64,000 bases of DNA from a virus. The translations under genes were made by a program, and so were the position numbers. The notes below the pieces were generated by a model. The model was not told the origin of the DNA. It did not search any database and saw only the letters and a program-made list of their open reading frames with translations. The DNA lies in IMG/VR virus record IMGVR_UViG_3300027749_000038; one strand, 5' to 3'. Of the stretch, positions 5,011 to 11,340 are shown piece after piece. Within the stretch, counting starts at the first letter, position 1, and every line of letters begins with the position of its first letter.

Positions 5011-6462
5011 ATGAGTAATGTTAGCTCCGCTCCAGGATATATCGATCGTAACCGCGCAACTCAGTTGCTAGAAAAATGGGCCCCAATCCTTGATTTCTCT
5101 AGCGCTAAGGTAGCTCCAATTGAGAATGACCATAGCCGTTTGGCTACTGCCATCTTGATGGAAAACCAAGAGAAGTGGTGTTTAAATGAAGCAGGAAATA
5201 CCGCCTCCGGTGGTGTTTTCGGCACAGCGGCAACTGGTAATTATGGTGGCCAAGTAGGACCCGCTGGGTCTGATTGGTACGCTAGTAATGACGCCCGTAT
5301 GCCTAAAGTATTGATTCCTATGGTCCGCCGTACTTTCCCAGAGTTGATCACCAACGAAATCGTTGGAGTTCAGCCTATGAATGGTCCGGTTGGTATGGCA
5401 TTTGCAATGCGTTATAGATATGAAAATGCTGCTCTAGGTACAAACGGTATTGATGGTGTCAATTCTCCCGGTGCTGGTACAGGTGTGGGTTCCAATGGAA
5501 TTCCTCGCGTGGCTGGACCGAACGAAATTGGTTTTCAATACTTGGATACACGTTTCACTGGCACTTCTTCCGCTGGTCTTTCCGGAGTTACCTCCGATTG
5601 GTCATGGAATGCAGAAGACCAGGGTGTAGCCGCTATCTTGAGTCAGTTTGAATTAACTGGGAACATTCCTCAAGTAACTGTTGAATTCAGCAAGATCGCA
5701 GTTGAAGCCGGTACACGCCGCCTCGCAGCTCGCTGGTCGGTTGAATTGGAACAGGATTTGAAGAACATGAACGGATTGGATATCGATTCTGAATTGACAA
5801 ACGCTATGTCGTATGAAATTCAGGCCGAAATCGACCGTGAAATGATTGTTCGCATGATTCAGTTGTCTCTTAATGCAGGTAAAGGTACTGGGTATAGCTT
5901 CTGGTATGCAGCTTCTGCTGATGCTCGTTGGATGGGAGAACGTAATCGTGACTTCTACGCCAAGGTCATCGTTGAAGCCAACCGTATCGCCATTCGTAAC
6001 CGCCGTGGTTCCGCAAACTTCATCGTTGCAACTCCACGTGTTTGTGCGATTTTGGAGATGCTCCCTGAGTTTCAGTGGATGCCAGTAAACGGAAACGTCA
6101 ACACACAACCAACAGGCATTGCCAAAGTTGGTACAGTTGGTGGCCGCTTTACAATCTACCGCGACACACGTACCGAAGCTCAGAACCTAGGTAGCCGTAA
6201 TGCAGCAGGAACAGGTATTGAATATGCTTTATTAGGTTACAAAGGTACCGAGTATTACGATACAGGTATCGTCTATTGTCCGTACATCCCAGTGATGATT
6301 CAACGTACAGTTGGACCGACAGATTTCGCACCTCGCGTAGGGTTAATGACCCGTTACGGAGTTGTGGATTACATCTTCGGTGCTTCTTTGTACTACCATG
6401 TAATCATCGTTAAGGGTCTCAGCACTGACAATGTAGCCGGTAATGCCAGAATCTACATGTAA
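5011..6462 (+). CDS. gp23: Major capsid protein (gp23-like)
   Basis: LLEKWAPIL, AILMENQE, LIPMVRRTFPEL...IVGVQPMNGPVGMAFAMR, VEAGTRRLAARWSVELEQDLKNMNGLDIDSEL, YCPYIP and GLMTRYG. Confidence 0.97.
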   Translation: MSNVSSAPGYIDRNRATQLLEKWAPILDFSSAKVAPIENDHSRLATAILMENQEKWCLNEAGNTASGGVFGTAATGNYGGQVGPAGSDWYASNDARMPKVLIPMVRRTFPELITNEIVGVQPMNGPVGMAFAMRYRYENAALGTNGIDGVNSPGAGTGVGSNGIPRVAGPNEIGFQYLDTRFTGTSSAGLSGVTSDWSWNAEDQGVAAILSQFELTGNIPQVTVEFSKIAVEAGTRRLAARWSVELEQDLKNMNGLDIDSELTNAMSYEIQAEIDREMIVRMIQLSLNAGKGTGYSFWYAASADARWMGERNRDFYAKVIVEANRIAIRNRRGSANFIVATPRVCAILEMLPEFQWMPVNGNVNTQPTGIAKVGTVGGRFTIYRDTRTEAQNLGSRNAAGTGIEYALLGYKGTEYYDTGIVYCPYIPVMIQRTVGPTDFAPRVGLMTRYGVVDYIFGASLYYHVIIVKGLSTDNVAGNARIYM

Positions 6463-6479
6463 GCCTTAGGATAGTTCTT

Positions 6480-6515
6480 AAAACACTCCCACCCAAAAGG
6501 TGGGAGTGTTTTTTT
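6480..6515 (+). terminator. Rho-independent terminator after gp23
   Basis: AAACACTCCCACC-CAAAA-GGTGGGAGTGTTT stem-loop followed by a T tract. Confidence 0.9.
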
Positions 6516-6518
6516 GCT

Positions 6519-6546
6519 TTGATTTCCCATATTTTTGTCTTATTAT
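6519..6546 (+). promoter_or_regulatory. Sigma70-like promoter (TTGATT-N16-TATTAT), -10 box 6 nt before the ATG at 6553
   Basis: Boxes read directly from the sequence; no SD precedes the ATG. Confidence 0.5.
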
Positions 6547-6552
6547 AGACAT

Positions 6553-7104
6553 ATGAATTTAAGATTTGCTTTTTGTGGAGCCCACGGAACCGGTAAAACT
6601 ACTGTTTTAAAAGATATAGCAGATGATCTTTTAGATGTTTACGATCTTAAACCTATTTTTAATACTAGTAATGCTCGTAAATTATTCAAATTGGGTGAAG
6701 AATTAAATGACAAAGGTGGAAATTTTGTACAATATGTAGTACAAGCCAGTCATGTTAGTCGATTTGCAGAAGAAAATTGGTTTGCCGATCGATGTGTGGT
6801 AGATGGATGGGCTTATATGATTGCAGCAAGGCTTAAAAATCAGGTTGATTCAGAATGTTGGCACTCTGTGAGTTGTATGATGGAGTTCTTCGTTCCTTTA
6901 TATACACAGATCTTCTATGTTCCTATTGAATTTGAGATGGAAAATGACGGAATCCGTAAGGTTGATACAGAATATCAGAGAGAAATAGATCATTATATGT
7001 CAGAAGAATTGTTAAAATATAAAAATGTAACAATAGTTAAAGGAAGTCGTGACGAGAGAAAGAATATTGTATTAAAATACCTCCATGAACTTATTCATTC
7101 TTGA
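6553..7104 (+). CDS. P-loop NTPase / nucleoside-monophosphate-kinase-like protein (AAA_28/NadR-like)
   Basis: Walker A motif GAHGTGKT, kinase-type DRCVVD motif and IFYVPIEFEMENDGIR. Confidence 0.7.
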   Translation: MNLRFAFCGAHGTGKTTVLKDIADDLLDVYDLKPIFNTSNARKLFKLGEELNDKGGNFVQYVVQASHVSRFAEENWFADRCVVDGWAYMIAARLKNQVDSECWHSVSCMMEFFVPLYTQIFYVPIEFEMENDGIRKVDTEYQREIDHYMSEELLKYKNVTIVKGSRDERKNIVLKYLHELIHS

Positions 7105-8093: not shown

Positions 8094-8557
8094 CCATCCA
8101 GCAACATATCTCCTCTGGTTTTTGAAGATTTACTACCAATCATTTGAGAAATTACCTCATCTCTAGTGGCTATAAGAATATTATTAGATGCTGGAAGTCT
8201 AGAAACTATATCTTTCTTTCCAGCAATATCCATTTCTTTAAGTTTTACATCTACAGTGGCTTGTTTTTGTTGTAGATTAATTTTATTCATTGAATCAATA
8301 GCCTTGGTTGTGGCTCCTATCAACTGAGCCATAGCAGCAATTTCTTTAGAATCAGCTCCCATAGCAATAGAATTTTTAAGACTAGTAATAGCCTCTAAAC
8401 CAGCTTGAATTACCTCTGAGGTTTTTTTGTATACATATTCATTAACATTTTCATCATTCACTTTTTCTACAGGACTAGGAGGAATTAATAAAGCAGAAGT
8501 AATACTATCTGCTCTAAGGTCTTGTATAATACTATCAATTTCGTTACGGCATTCCAT
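8090..8557 (-). CDS. gp16: Probable terminase small subunit (gp16-like)
   Basis: Helical pattern EYVY...EVIQAGLEAI..L......DSKEIAAMAQLIGATTKAIDSM.KI, then NNILIATRDEVISQM, resembles the cyanophage-type gp16 tail (NNALFVGST..LQK.L). Confidence 0.6.
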   Translation of the reverse strand: MECRNEIDSIIQDLRADSITSALLIPPSPVEKVNDENVNEYVYKKTSEVIQAGLEAITSLKNSIAMGADSKEIAAMAQLIGATTKAIDSMNKINLQQKQATVDVKLKEMDIAGKKDIVSRLPASNNILIATRDEVISQMIGSKSSKTRGDMLLDG

Positions 8558-8558
8558 G

Positions 8559-8587
8559 TTGAATATTTTTTAATCCAGAGCTATAAT
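8559..8587 (+). promoter_or_regulatory. Sigma70 promoter TTGAAT-N17-TATAAT; predicted +1 coincides with the A of the dUTPase ATG (8594)
   Basis: Near-consensus boxes, 17-bp spacer, 6 nt to the ATG. Confidence 0.75.
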
Positions 8588-8593
8588 ACTTAT

Positions 8594-9148
8594 ATGACTA
8601 ATTATCCTTTTCTATCAGAAATTCACTTTAAGAAAACTCATCCCGAGGCTCTTCTTCCGCGTAGAAATAATTCTAATGATACAGGTTATGATCTATTTGC
8701 TGTAGAGGATGTTACTATTCCTTCCAAGGGAGATGGAGTTGTCCCAACTGGAATACAAGTAGCAAAGGTACCGGAAAATATTTGGTATTTAATTCTTCCG
8801 CGATCTGGTATAGGCTTTAAACATGGTATACAACCTCATTTAGGTGTAATTGATAATTGTGTACCAGCTGGTACTAAAATTCTTACATCAGAAGGAGAAA
8901 TAAATGTAGAAGATCTTTTTGAAAGAGAAATTAAACCAAACATTATTTCATATCACATCGACTCTCATCAGCTTCAGGAAGATAATATAAAGGATATGTG
9001 GATTGTAGAAAACCGTGAACTTTTTAAAATACATACAGCGGATGGTAATATACTAGAAGTTCCTCCAGAAAAAGAACTTTATACAAAAAAAGGATGGATA
9101 AAAGCTTTGAATTTGACAGAAGGAGATGAAATACTATCAGTTTCTTAA
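8594..9148 (+). CDS. dut: dUTPase N-terminal half (88 aa, motifs I-III) fused to a split-intein N fragment (96 aa, starts at Cys codon 8858)
   Basis: dUTPase motifs DTGYDL, VVPTG, ILPRSGIGFKHG and GVIDN are followed by intein block A CVPAGTKILTSEGEINVEDL and the ending KGWIKALNLTEGDEILSV-stop. Confidence 0.93.
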   Translation: MTNYPFLSEIHFKKTHPEALLPRRNNSNDTGYDLFAVEDVTIPSKGDGVVPTGIQVAKVPENIWYLILPRSGIGFKHGIQPHLGVIDNCVPAGTKILTSEGEINVEDLFEREIKPNIISYHIDSHQLQEDNIKDMWIVENRELFKIHTADGNILEVPPEKELYTKKGWIKALNLTEGDEILSVS

Positions 9149-9183
9149 TACCATTACCACCACGATATAGGGTAAGTATACGT

Positions 9184-10140
9184 ATGAAGCACGAACACAC
9201 ATGCCCACAATGTTATATTACATTTTTTAACTCTAAAAAAATTTCTAAATACTGTTCCAAAAAATGCAAAATAGAAGCAATGACAATTGCTAAAATTTTA
9301 AAGTGTGAACTTTGTTTAAAACCATTCAAATCTACAGATTTACAACGGCGTTTTTGTTCTGTTTTGTGTTCATCAACTGCACATAAAAATCGCAAAATTT
9401 TAGAATGTTTATATTGTTTTAAAAAATTTGAAGTTATGGGATATATGGCTTTAAAAACAAAATATTGTTCTCGAGAATGCAGTTCAAAAGATATAAAATT
9501 AAAAGGTATTTTAAAAGTTCCAGAATCTGAAAAAAATGTTTTTAGCAAGAAATGTAATAACTGCCAAAAAGATTATAAAGTTTGGGGATACAGGAAAGAA
9601 ATTTCAAAATATTGTTCAACTAAATGTCGTTATGAAACTGGTAGAATTTCTTGTATATGTTCAATATGTAAAACTTCTTACGAAGAAGAATATAATGTCT
9701 ATTGTAACAGCTTTAATGTTAAACACAAATGTAAAAATTGTAGAGAATTAAATTCAACTTCCTCTTTTGAGTTGGATGTAAGGTTGTTCCTTAAACAAAA
9801 TGGATTTAAATTTTCAACGAACCAGGCTGTAGCAAAACCAAACAAAAGGGGATATGTGTATCCAGACATTGTTTGTGGCAATATTATTATTGAATGCAAT
9901 GGTGATTTTTTTCATTGCAATCCGGAAATTTATTCATCTTCTTTTATAAATCCTCGCACATTAAAAACTGCACAAGAAATTTGGGACCATGACAAGTATA
10001 AAAGAGACCTTTATATGGAATGTGGTTATAATGTAATTGTTGTGTGGGAATCAAAGTGGAAAAATCAGATTCACCAACTAGAAATTTTAAATATTCTTAA
10101 ATCTTATGAAAATAACCCACTCCAAAGTGACAAAAATTGA
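9184..10140 (+). CDS. Free-standing putative homing endonuclease: tandem CxxC...YCSxxC Zn modules plus a C-terminal Vsr/DUF559-like nuclease
   Basis: Four CxxC-x10-15-(Y/F)CSxxC repeats, then SSFELDV...YVYPDIVCGNIIIECNGDFFHCNP...DKYKRDLYMECGYNVIVVWESKW. Confidence 0.8.
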   Translation: MKHEHTCPQCYITFFNSKKISKYCSKKCKIEAMTIAKILKCELCLKPFKSTDLQRRFCSVLCSSTAHKNRKILECLYCFKKFEVMGYMALKTKYCSRECSSKDIKLKGILKVPESEKNVFSKKCNNCQKDYKVWGYRKEISKYCSTKCRYETGRISCICSICKTSYEEEYNVYCNSFNVKHKCKNCRELNSTSSFELDVRLFLKQNGFKFSTNQAVAKPNKRGYVYPDIVCGNIIIECNGDFFHCNPEIYSSSFINPRTLKTAQEIWDHDKYKRDLYMECGYNVIVVWESKWKNQIHQLEILNILKSYENNPLQSDKN

Positions 10141-10405
10141 AAAATCAACTTCTAAAGACATTTTTTATTTATCTGTAAAAAATAACGCCAATTATTTTGC
10201 TAATAAGCTTTGTGTACACAATTGCTATCGTGGCGATCTGGGAGTTAAATTATATAATTTTTCTAATACAGATCATAAGGTGTTAAAGGGAGATAGAGTA
10301 GCTCAAATAGCTTACTTTCCGTTGATATCTCTCGAACCACAGTGGTCAGAAGAAGTAGAAGAAACCGACCGAGGAGCTAACGGCTTCGGTCAATCAGGAA
10401 AATAA
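10106..10405 (+). CDS. dut: Split-intein C fragment (39 aa, ends VHN) fused to the dUTPase C-terminal half (60 aa; +1 Cys at 10223)
   Basis: MKITHSKVTKIEK...DIFYLSVKNNANYFANKLCVHN|CYRGDLGVKLYN...KGDRVAQI...ETDRGANGFGQSG (intein blocks F/G, then dUTPase motifs III-V). Confidence 0.93.
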   Translation: MKITHSKVTKIEKSTSKDIFYLSVKNNANYFANKLCVHNCYRGDLGVKLYNFSNTDHKVLKGDRVAQIAYFPLISLEPQWSEEVEETDRGANGFGQSGK

Positions 10406-10407
10406 TT

Positions 10408-11340
10408 ATGAACAATCATTATAAAAATTTATGGTGTGAAAAATATAGACCACAAAAATTTGAAGATCTAGTTTTAGAACAAGAAATTAAAAATCATTTA
10501 TTGTCTATCAATGAGGATACTCCTCATCTTTTGTTTCACGGTAGTGCTGGTATCGGTAAAACCACCTCAGTTAAGATTCTAGTCAAACATGTATTAAAGT
10601 GTCAGTATCTTTATATTAATGCCAGTGATGAAAATGGTATTGACACCATTCGTAACAAAGTTATTTCATTTGCTCAAACTCGATCTTTAGATGGAAAGAA
10701 AAAAGTAGTGATTCTAGACGAAGCAGACGGATTGACCGGAGATTCTTTGCGTATTCTACGGAATGTAATGGATGAATTTACAGACACCACCCGTTTTCTT
10801 CTCACTGCAAATTACATTAACAAGATTATTGAACCTATTCGTTCAAGATGTATGTTGGTTAAGCTTCAACCTAACCTTAAAGGTATTGTACAGCGAAGCA
10901 TAGATATCCTTAGAGGCGAAGGAGTTTCTGTAGCAGATGATCAAAAGTCTGCATTGCTAAGTCTTATAGAAAAAAACAGTCCAGACATTCGTCGAATTAT
11001 TAATGATTTACAAAAATATTCAGTCTCTGGTCAATTAATCATTAAAGAAGATAATCAAATATCAAATTTTGCGTCTTCTATATTTAAAGATTTAACAGCA
11101 AAGACTTCTAGCTTAGAAATTCGTAAAAAGATTATTGAAGCAGAAAAATCTTTTAATGGAGACTTTCAAAGTTTGATGAAAGAATTATTTGAATACATTT
11201 ATCGCTCAGATTTTAAAGACAATGTCAAAAAATCTTTAATGTTAAATCTCGGAGAATATATGTATAGAGATGCAACAGTTTTAGACAAAGAAATTAATTT
11301 CTTTTGTTGTATAATTGCTCTGGAAAATGATTTAAAATAA
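10408..11340 (+). CDS. gp44: Sliding-clamp loader ATPase subunit (gp44 / RFC small-subunit-like)
   Basis: LWCEKYRP, PHLLFHGSAGIGKTT, YINASDENGIDTIR, VILDEADGLT and IIEPIRSRC. Confidence 0.93.
   Translation: MNNHYKNLWCEKYRPQKFEDLVLEQEIKNHLLSINEDTPHLLFHGSAGIGKTTSVKILVKHVLKCQYLYINASDENGIDTIRNKVISFAQTRSLDGKKKVVILDEADGLTGDSLRILRNVMDEFTDTTRFLLTANYINKIIEPIRSRCMLVKLQPNLKGIVQRSIDILRGEGVSVADDQKSALLSLIEKNSPDIRRIINDLQKYSVSGQLIIKEDNQISNFASSIFKDLTAKTSSLEIRKKIIEAEKSFNGDFQSLMKELFEYIYRSDFKDNVKKSLMLNLGEYMYRDATVLDKEINFFCCIIALENDLK

Follow-up and report, generated by a model that had tools for sequence, protein, structure and literature searches.

Organization of the fractured dUTPase locus

A viral DNA of 64,000 nucleotides (IMG/VR virus record IMGVR_UViG_3300027749_000038; the whole stretch analysed, hereafter the window) carries a dUTPase gene that is divided between two reading frames with a third frame in between, and the question raised by this locus is whether a complete enzyme could still be made, and how the gene came to be interrupted. 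The initial annotation, made from the letters alone, proposed a naturally split intein within the dUTPase and a free-standing endonuclease between its halves. The coordinates and the sequence anatomy of the three frames given there were confirmed base for base. ORF1 (8594-9148, plus strand; 184 aa) carries in residues 1-88 the N-terminal part of dUTPase with motifs I and II and the first half of motif III (N-extein, 8594..8857), ending in GVIDN with a catalytic-type Asp at position -2, and in residues 89-184 an N-terminal intein half of 96 aa (IntN, 8858..9148), which starts with Cys1 (codon TGT at 8858) of the block A sequence CVPAGTKILT and is followed by a stop codon. After a gap of 35 nt (9149..9183) comes the endonuclease gene, ORF2 (9184-10140, plus strand; 318 aa), which in some database gene calls begins at an internal Met to yield a product of 286 aa (P0260). 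ORF3 (10106-10405, plus strand; 99 aa) begins with a C-terminal intein half (IntC, 10106..10222; 39 aa with blocks F and G) ending in Cys-Val-His-Asn, to which the C-extein (10223..10405) is joined, running from the +1 Cys at 10223 through YRG, where motif III ends, and motifs IV and V to the stop codon.

The endonuclease gene runs, in a different frame, into the first 35 nt of the IntC sequence, and in each of the six loci compared it overlaps ORF3 by 28-38 nt. Since the three ORFs all lie on the plus strand with short gaps or overlaps, they are probably co-transcribed, and the start of the C-half within the end of the nuclease gene would couple the translation of both. The scan of this locus for promoters and terminators gave scores no better than shuffled sequences and no convincing promoter, and no ribosome-binding site was established there; a hairpin ahead of the nuclease start was significant in only one related locus (L046, z -2.6; window, z -1.3).

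The two outer frames matched adjoining parts of the Pfam profile of trimeric dUTPase (PF00692), ORF1 residues 21-92 at profile positions 5-74 of 129 (E 7e-11) and ORF3 residues 38-98 at positions 69-129 (E 1e-10), indicating that they are complementary halves of one dUTPase; once the halves are joined, all five motifs stand in order.

Comparison with the intein-free allele

An uninterrupted dUTPase allele of 148 aa is present in a 131-kb relative. The joined exteins of the window, for which a canonical 148-aa enzyme had been predicted, are equal in length to the intein-free allele P0002 and identical to it at 146 of 148 residues, the N-extein at 87 of 88 and the C-extein at 59 of 60, the only differences being I73M and C89G. 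The latter is the +1 position, where the intein-free allele reads GVIDN-G-YRG and the joined exteins read GVIDN-C-YRG, so that the location of the split intein in motif III, and the replacement of the usual residue by the +1 Cys, both hold. At the DNA level, the alignment between the window and an intein-free contig (L002; junction sequence CTTGGAGTGATTGACAATGGTTATCGCGGA) breaks exactly at 8860/10218 (blastn). As I73M and the Gly at +1 are the only differences of the empty allele, the insertion of the cassette into the dUTPase gene is exact. Close intein-free relatives carry Gly, Pro or Ser at the +1 position, which thereby appears to tolerate substitution. No second dUTPase gene was detected within the 64-kb window, and the 131-kb relative has only one.

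Signs of mobility of the cassette

The same locus was found in an independent metagenome contig (L001), which aligns with the window without gaps at 97.2% nucleotide identity. Between the two, the cassette (8858-10222, plus strand) shows 4 differences in 1365 nt (0.3%), but the downstream flank shows 115 in 2778 nt (about 4%). Comparison of the spliced coding sequence (447 nt) with the intein-free allele gave 16 nucleotide differences, 9 of which fall within -17 to +12 nt of the junction (8841-8857 and 10223-10234; with the cassette, 8841..10234), a clustering with a binomial P of 1.5e-7 that takes in silent changes. From the low divergence of the cassette relative to its flank, together with the silent changes gathered at the junction, the cassette looks mobile. 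Against a more distant locus (L045), IntN of the window is 58% identical, and the exteins are 31% and 36% identical, a comparison between lineages in which the intein is better conserved than its host protein and which likewise points to mobility.

The free-standing endonuclease

The N-terminal region of ORF2 (9184..9759) contains five Cys4 modules of the form CxxC...[YF]CSxxC, resembling FCS-type zinc fingers, with cysteines that are invariant in the alignment of nuclease homologues. A search of PDB with the nuclease profile matched the FCS zinc finger of Polyhomeotic-like 1 (2l8e, E 0.0038), weak matches to zf-FCS_1 and zf-FLZ of Pfam fall on the same region, and each module was modelled by AF2 as a beta-hairpin plus a helix. 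The array is presumed to bind DNA.

The C-terminal catalytic domain (9760..10140) was modelled by AF2 with a pLDDT of 87-96, and the earlier identification of a Vsr-like enzyme between the halves agrees well with the Foldseek matches of the nuclease model to Vsr (1cw0_A, probability 1.00, TMt 0.53; 1vsr, probability 1.00) and to the catalytic domain of I-Bth0305I (3r3p_A, probability 1.00, TMt 0.76). The 11 nuclease homologues all share D228, E237, H244, D270 and E289, and nearly all have D241; the correspondence with D51, H69 and D97 of Vsr was assigned by eye from the description in PMC2677866, rather than by residue-level superposition. PF18741 was detected weakly in all 11 homologues, but the sequence matches to Vsr (E 0.6) and to PF18741 stay below the curated thresholds and only the fold match is strong. 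On the basis of the model, ORF2 is predicted to have the Vsr/I-Bth0305I (EDxHD) fold; it is probably an active nuclease and would cut the intein-free allele in homing.

Proposed origin and expression of the split enzyme

The explanation that we favor, with a probability of roughly three in four, is that a selfish mobile cassette, composed of a split intein and a free-standing EDxHD nuclease with a zinc-finger-like array, resides in dUTPase motif III of an uncultured T4-like phage, and that the enzyme is restored by trans-splicing. The N-half, in which 88 dUTPase residues precede the 96-aa IntN, and the C-half, in which the 39-aa IntC precedes 60 dUTPase residues, would associate through the intein halves to form the HINT fold, and protein trans-splicing by Cys1, the Asn that ends IntC and the +1 Cys would then yield the 148-aa dUTPase. 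During co-infection, the nuclease would cut the intein-free dUTPase alleles of related phages, and recombinational repair would copy the cassette in. The silent changes at the junction could either shield the carrier allele from cleavage or represent a co-converted donor flank. The homing cassette thus conceived appears to be still on the move among related T4-like phages of lakes or oceans, and its co-conversion tracts are very short.

Fold and splicing residues of the intein halves

A phmmer search with IntN against 1.84 billion representatives gave 220 matches at E<=1e-3, all of HINT or intein type. The AF2 model of IntN (pLDDT 93.7) retrieved from PDB by Foldseek only inteins and HINT domains as top matches (probability 0.98-1.00), of which IntN of Npu DnaE (4qfq_A) was the best (TMq 0.84, rmsd 2.0 over 98 columns), and IntN is accordingly modelled as a HINT fold. 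In ORF3, the Intein_splicing profile PF14890 matched residues 3-39 at profile positions 118-155 of 155, with an E value of 6e-5 that is below the curated cut-off. Cys1 is conserved in all 46 dUTPase-hosted IntN sequences, and H38 and N39 of IntC, followed by the +1 Cys, are invariant in all nine fractured alleles. By these nucleophiles (Cys1, the terminal His-Asn and the +1 Cys) the intein belongs to class 1; class 3 was rejected because Cys1 is present and position 4 of block F (F:4) is not Cys.

The first reading of the sequence had missed that the intein is non-canonical at block B (PPEK) and at F:4 (Tyr). The turn of block B (9062..9073) reads Pro69-Pro70-Glu71-Lys72 (PxxK) instead of the canonical Thr-x-x-His. 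In a MAFFT alignment of 135 IntN relatives, consisting of 46 dUTPase-hosted sequences and, as the TxxH panel, 89 metagenomic relatives in other hosts (not the solved inteins Npu DnaE, gp41-1 and NrdJ-1), the His column (B:10) is Lys in 41 of 46 dUTPase-hosted sequences versus His in 88 of 89 others, and the Thr column (B:7) is Pro in 37 of 46 versus Thr in 79 of 89. At F:4, which is Asp in canonical class 1 inteins, the window has Tyr21 of IntC (10166..10168), and the nine fractured alleles have Tyr (three) or His (six) but never Asp; this column was assigned by eye alignment to P0160, a separate, contiguous form of dUTPase intein that reads VYDMTV there, giving Asp at F:4. PMC4031507 places Thr B:7, His B:10 and Asp F:4 at the N-terminal scissile bond. 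According to reviews, the block B His is the most conserved residue of inteins, lacking in only a very small subset, and two His-less inteins were known in 2014, one of them a pseudogene (PMC4031507).

Since these three residues are replaced by Pro, Lys and Tyr in the window, the first splicing step probably uses a different solution for activation of the N-terminal junction. Trans-splicing thereby seems less certain than first assumed, and we infer, rather than observe, both the splicing of the dUTPase halves and its need for activity; that dUTP sanitising depends on splicing, as the initial annotation held, is likewise a conditional statement. A precedent is the Tko CDC21-1 intein with its orthologues, which, as summarized in PMC4031507 and PMC6333167 (for Tori et al. 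2012), is active without the block B His, a Lys activating the N-terminal junction. By analogy with Lys58 of this intein, Lys72 at B:10 is proposed to stabilise the tetrahedral intermediate. The two differ, as far as those summaries go, in that Lys58 lies outside the conserved motifs whereas the Lys of the dUTPase intein is at B:10 itself, and in that Tko CDC21-1 is contiguous and archaeal with its activity shown, whereas the dUTPase intein is naturally split, phage-borne and known from sequence. We incline, if only slightly, to the view that the dUTPase-hosted split inteins form a large natural clade that splices efficiently despite having Pro at B:7, Lys at B:10 and Tyr or His at F:4 in place of Thr, His and Asp, with the Lys at B:10 as a distinct catalytic solution. 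The clade offers a natural experiment, in that Lys replaces the block B His in dozens of members that have diverged under purifying selection, and activation of the first acyl shift without His becomes directly testable.

The replacement of all three residues is also what relaxed selection on the chemistry could give, if the intein halves were now docking domains only and the dUTPase fragments, joined non-covalently, were active without splicing. Such a state has a parallel in nrdA of phage Aeh1, split by a homing endonuclease gene, the fragments of which are reported to work non-covalently (PMC3045599). Purifying selection on IntN and IntC would be equally expected for a docking domain. However, Cys1 (46 of 46), the terminal Asn (9 of 9) and the +1 Cys (9 of 9) are all kept though useless for docking, the +1 Cys is even imposed where the empty allele has Gly, and the replacement in block B is a specific, conserved PxxK (37 of 46) and not random decay. 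Furthermore, a HINT domain of 135 aa retained between the Asp and the Tyr of motif III would, given the established structure of dUTPase, lie within its active-site hairpin. Docking without splicing is therefore considered unlikely.

Conservation and distribution of the fractured layout

The fractured dUTPase is not a one-off, for about 46 representatives of 50%-identity clusters consist of a dUTPase N-half plus this IntN. Within motif III, the dUTPase split inteins are inserted at either of two points that are separated by one codon. After scanning viral contigs with an alignment of eight sequences, the same three-gene layout was identified in five further distinct viral loci (L003, L045, L046/L047, L049 and L050), each with dUTPase-N plus IntN, a homologous nuclease of 277-358 aa, and IntC plus dUTPase-C. 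Between L045 and L046, dN/dS was 0.15 for IntN, 0.03 for IntC, 0.20 for the nuclease and 0.22-0.35 for the exteins; all five parts (two exteins, IntN, IntC and nuclease) are, as estimated from these ratios, under purifying selection. The C-halves of the nine fractured alleles share an invariant YRG, the motif IV Gln and the R-G..G.G..G core of motif V.

These observations bear on the possibility that the dUTPase gene is no longer functional, a loss that the phage would tolerate by use of the host enzyme or another copy while intein and exteins decay. The insertion could indeed be recent, as this intein-carrying lineage was seen in two near-identical copies only (the window and L001). Decay is nevertheless quite improbable, because the fractured layout persists across lineages with exteins only about 31-57% identical, dN/dS of all parts is well below 1, motifs III-V are retained in every C-half compared, and in none of the six loci does any of the three ORFs contain a frameshift or internal stop. 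That the layout is an artefact of assembly or gene calling, in which a contiguous intein with a nested endonuclease was broken by sequencing errors, is a general possibility with metagenome assemblies but here a practically negligible one, since the gapless contig from another sample shares the stops and starts, the reading frames of the five more divergent loci and of about 46 cluster representatives stop no more than 6 residues from the C-terminus of IntN, and the nuclease, which is read in another frame, has a start of its own and overlaps ORF3 in all loci.

No match to 8400-10600 was obtained in GenBank phage DNA (blastn, distant mode). When 185,579 species genomes were scanned with a single protein, a search that reaches close relatives only, no cellular copy was detected; the sole match was 28% identical and located in an Ilumatobacteraceae MAG.

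Comparison with known fractured genes, nucleases and inteins

The layout agrees with the fractured genes described by Dassa, London, Stoddard, Schueler-Furman and Pietrokovski in 2009 (PMC2677866) for gp41, NrdA, NrdJ, IMPDH, DnaE, DNA ligase, gp17 terminase and one unknown protein, as had been recognized from the beginning. As in those cases, the split site is canonical and the surroundings are phage-like; the two enzyme halves, each with one intein half, share a locus and a strand, and a free-standing endonuclease is located between them. The differences are that the eight host types do not include dUTPase, that the dUTPase intein is without the block B Thr and His, and that the nucleases of that set carry NUMOD3 motifs in two cases whereas ORF2 has an N-terminal Cys4 zinc-finger-like array; a structural zinc ion was judged unlikely in the nuclease domain of that family (PMC2677866). 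A full-text literature search found no paper on a dUTPase-hosted intein, in support of the earlier remark that dUTPase is not a recognised host of split inteins. Papers on phages Maynard, CampHawk and IBB_35 describe inteins in terminase, UvrD, PhoH or RNR and not in dUTPase, and excerpts of a paper on crAss-like phages mention dUTPase only as an ordinary enzyme. The layout has thus been known since 2009, and dUTPase appears to be new as its host, the ninth enzyme of this arrangement and, with about 46 clusters at 50% identity, not a rare one.

I-Bth0305I, the EDxHD prototype (PMC3239194; PDB 3r3p), shares with ORF2 the Vsr-like fold of the catalytic domain and the conserved acidic and His residues (E237, D241, H244 and D270 in ORF2), and the EDxHD family is associated with introns and split inteins (PMC3239194). 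By sequence, the similarity between ORF2 and I-Bth0305I was too low for HMMER to report. The I-Bth0305I gene resides in a group I intron of phage recA, whereas ORF2 stands free between intein halves and, unlike I-Bth0305I, has about five FCS-type zinc-finger-like modules. A natural nuclease in which zinc-finger-like modules in tandem precede an EDxHD domain could be of interest for biotechnology.

With Npu DnaE, gp41-1 and NrdJ-1 (PDB 4qfq, 6qaz and 8ubs), the dUTPase intein has in common the HINT fold, the split position and Cys1, Asn and +1 Cys, but their sequence identity to the dUTPase IntN is only 16-21%. If trans-splicing indeed takes place, these would be new and possibly orthogonal split inteins with the +1 Cys in the context of an active-site loop of a small enzyme, and short Cys1/Cys+1 split inteins so distant from gp41-1, NrdJ-1 and Npu DnaE may be useful as biotechnological tools. 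Among sequence searches of PDB, the top matches, between a 17-residue stretch of IntN and designer PPR repeats, were set aside as spurious, and the closest solved structure to IntN by sequence was the Spl DnaX mini-intein (E 0.0098).

Organization of the fractured dUTPase gene

Three genes, arranged head to tail on the + strand, were identified: ORF1 (8594-9148; 184 aa), ORF2 (9184-10140; 318 aa) and ORF3 (10106-10405; 99 aa), the first 35 nt of ORF3 being shared with the 3' end of ORF2 in a different frame. Of the 129 positions in the Pfam dUTPase profile, 5-74 are matched by ORF1 and 69-129 by ORF3. In ORF1, GVIDN is followed by a 96-residue segment with an initial Cys (IntN, the N-half of a split intein); in ORF3, CYRG is preceded by 39 N-terminal residues (IntC) that terminate in VHN and align with the C-terminal end of the Pfam profile Intein_splicing at E 6e-5, which falls short of the curated cut-off. 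The PHROGs assignment was concordant, with both halves assigned to dUTPase and ORF2 to nuclease families. Baseplate wedge proteins, a major head protein and a gp44-type clamp loader are encoded by the surrounding genes, which places the window in a T4-like myovirus. A sigma-70-like sequence, TTGAAT-17-TATAAT (10/12), is located at 8559-8587 within the 36-nt gap between ORF1 and a preceding, divergently oriented gene, its 3' end lying 6 nt ahead of the ORF1 ATG; in the promoter scan that yielded this candidate, the real sequence scored overall no better than shuffles.

The order of dUTPase-half/IntN, nuclease and IntC/dUTPase-half agrees with the initial annotation, which had recognized here the published fractured-gene arrangement. 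This layout has been known since 2009 for eight host types, dUTPase not among them (PMC2677866), and dUTPase as a host was not met in the literature searched: the full-text search, which covered the main text of openly available papers, yielded no paper on a dUTPase intein, and candidate papers containing both terms dealt with inteins in other genes or with dUTPase just as an ordinary enzyme.

Exact insertion point and the intein-free allele

Protein search retrieved uninterrupted 148-aa dUTPases with 95-99% identity to the N-extein. The closest, P0002, carries GVIDN-G-YRG at the junction and is encoded on contig L002 (G001; 131.5 kb, estimated 61% complete), which is colinear with the window on both flanks, the alignment breaking at 8860/10218. 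Only two residues distinguish the joined exteins from P0002, namely I73M and a Cys instead of Gly at +1, as expected from the earlier proposal that the +1 Cys stands in place of Gly. Since close intein-free relatives carry Gly, Pro or Ser at +1, this position is tolerant. By reference to Asp90 and Tyr93 of E. coli Dut, the break in motif III separates the Asp of catalysis from the Tyr that discriminates the sugar, and a HINT domain remaining between these two residues should be incompatible with an active site.

Recurrence of the fractured dUTPase among viral loci

The fractured dUTPase locus is genuine and was met repeatedly. It is present on an independent viral contig, L001, where an ungapped alignment of 4450 nt shows 97.2% identity (IntN and IntC 100% identical, nuclease 99.7%). 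The three-gene layout was also identified in five further distinct viral loci (L003/L004, L045, L046/L047/L048, L049 and L050), each with dUTPase-N plus IntN, a homologous nuclease of 277-358 aa, and IntC plus dUTPase-C, the inteins being 45-59% identical to that of the window. In every locus compared, the ORF3 start and the nuclease stop overlap by 28-38 nt. A full HMMER search using IntN alone as query against 1.84 billion cluster representatives gave 220 matches at E<=1e-3, about 46 of which are dUTPase N-halves whose C-termini lie no more than a few residues from that of IntN. Two insertion points, separated by one codon, were found in dUTPase: G-x-[IV]-D|C with a CGYRG or CSYRG C-extein in the majority, and IDN|C-YRG in a minority including the window. 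A contiguous dUTPase mini-intein was also found (P0160; 293 aa, both domains above Pfam thresholds).

Selection on the dUTPase halves

The dN/dS ratio was determined for L045 versus L046, the least saturated pair, giving 0.15 for IntN, 0.03 for IntC, 0.20 for the nuclease and 0.22-0.35 for the exteins. YRG and motifs IV and V are retained in all C-halves, the motif IV Gln and the motif V core, R-G..G.G..G, being invariant. These low ratios and retained motifs indicate purifying selection on the fractured gene across lineages with exteins only about 31-57% identical, and this persistence is the chief reason to think that a working dUTPase is still produced.

Non-canonical splicing residues

The AF2 model of IntN, built for IntN alone from a 45-sequence family alignment, reached pLDDT 93.7, and its top PDB matches were all inteins or HINT domains. 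Since the best match was to the N fragment of a split intein, that of Npu DnaE (TMq 0.84; rmsd 2.0 across 98 columns), the split site is canonical.

The N-terminal scissile bond involves Thr B:7, His B:10 and Asp F:4 (PMC4031507). Among intein residues, His B:10 shows the highest conservation, and the only two inteins listed without it are a pseudogene and Tko CDC21-1, which employs a Lys outside the motifs (PMC4031507; PMC6333167). We aligned 135 relatives, 46 hosted by dUTPase and 89 by other hosts. At B:10, His is present in 88 of the 89 but in none of the 46, which have Lys (41), Gln (3), Glu (1) or Thr (1); at B:7, Thr is present in 79 of the 89, and Pro in 37 of the 46. The window itself has Pro69-Pro-Glu-Lys72 (9062-9073). 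The dUTPase-hosted P0152, which retains TPEH, was missed by the host filter and stands outside the 46. In block F of IntC, the residue ahead of the invariant Leu is Tyr, as in the window, or His, and in the contiguous P0160 it is Asp. The specific conservation of PxxK, the nucleophiles kept throughout and the low dN/dS favor, short of proof, an alternative mechanism of active splicing and not decay.

A Cys at IntC residue 36 (10211-10213), three before the terminal Asn in C-[VL]-H-N, is kept in 9/9 fractured alleles; we know of no role assigned to this position.

Signs of cassette mobility

Comparison of the window with L001 gave 4 differences over the 1365 nt of the cassette (8858-10222), against 115 over the 2778 nt downstream. 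Along the spliced coding sequence (447 nt), 9 of the 16 nucleotide differences from the empty allele fall at -17 to +12 of the junction (binomial P 1.5e-7); all in this tract are silent except Gly to Cys, and the tract is common to the window and L001. The intein is also more alike between lineages than its host gene: identity of the window to L045 is 58% for IntN, against 31% and 36% for the exteins. The low cassette divergence, the clustered junction changes and the higher similarity of intein than extein point to mobility of the cassette. The junction tract is either a co-converted donor flank or a target site rendered immune to cleavage.

Three amino-acid differences between the window and L001, N103D, T104K and H106Y (joined numbering), cluster at 10262-10276, 40-52 nt downstream of the junction, where the window is the same as the intein-free L002 allele and L001 differs. 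This cluster suggests a recombination breakpoint and a co-converted stretch of at most about 40 nt.

The nuclease

PF18741 was detected in 11/11 nuclease homologues, always below threshold; Vsr was matched in sequence at E 0.6 only, and one homologue is labelled Vsr protein in a JGI record. For the AF2 model from 11 homologues (pLDDT 79 overall, 87-96 in the C-terminal domain), structural matches were obtained to E. coli Vsr (1cw0, 1vsr) and to the catalytic domain of I-Bth0305I (3r3p; TMt 0.76), each with probability 1.00. The EDxHD family, which has I-Bth0305I as its prototype (PMC3239194), was defined from Vsr-like genes in fractured loci (PMC3239194, PMC2677866). D228, E237, H244, D270 and E289 are invariant in the alignment, and D241 nearly so. 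The N-terminal 190 residues contain five Cys4 modules, CxxC...[YF]CSxxC, resembling FCS-type zinc fingers (2l8e, E 0.0038); their combination with an EDxHD/Vsr-like domain was not found in the literature examined. Module 2 (residues 37-67; 9292-9384), absent from all ten homologues, is one extra Cys4 module, apparently a tandem duplication of the zinc-finger-like unit; for want of alignment cover, the AF2 prediction of this module is of low confidence (pLDDT 40-56).

Neighboring selfish elements and related split inteins

The nearest IntN relatives with canonical TxxH belong to N-halves ending in C-x3-C-x2 right before the intein Cys1, as in DYCPFGCDF|C (P0146, P0165, P0166, P0168, P0177, P0180, P0182, P0190, P0199, P0203, P0229, P0239, P0249 and P0259). 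The arrangement resembles a split intein inserted precisely ahead of the third Cys in a radical-SAM CX3CX2C motif, in which case the +1 Cys would be a cluster ligand; Pfam analysis of three of these N-halves gave HINT domains only.

Directly downstream of the fractured dUTPase in L046 and L047 (5024-6799), a PhoH gene harbors a contiguous intein that includes a LAGLIDADG endonuclease domain (PhoH E 9e-40; LAGLIDADG_3 E 3e-12), inserted after the P-loop GCGK, the first inserted residue seemingly being Ala, not Cys. In L045, a free-standing GIY-YIG/NUMOD homing endonuclease gene (6036-6845; Pfam GIY-YIG E 1e-13) is located some 1 kb downstream of the dUTPase halves and is a second selfish nuclease of the same neighborhood.
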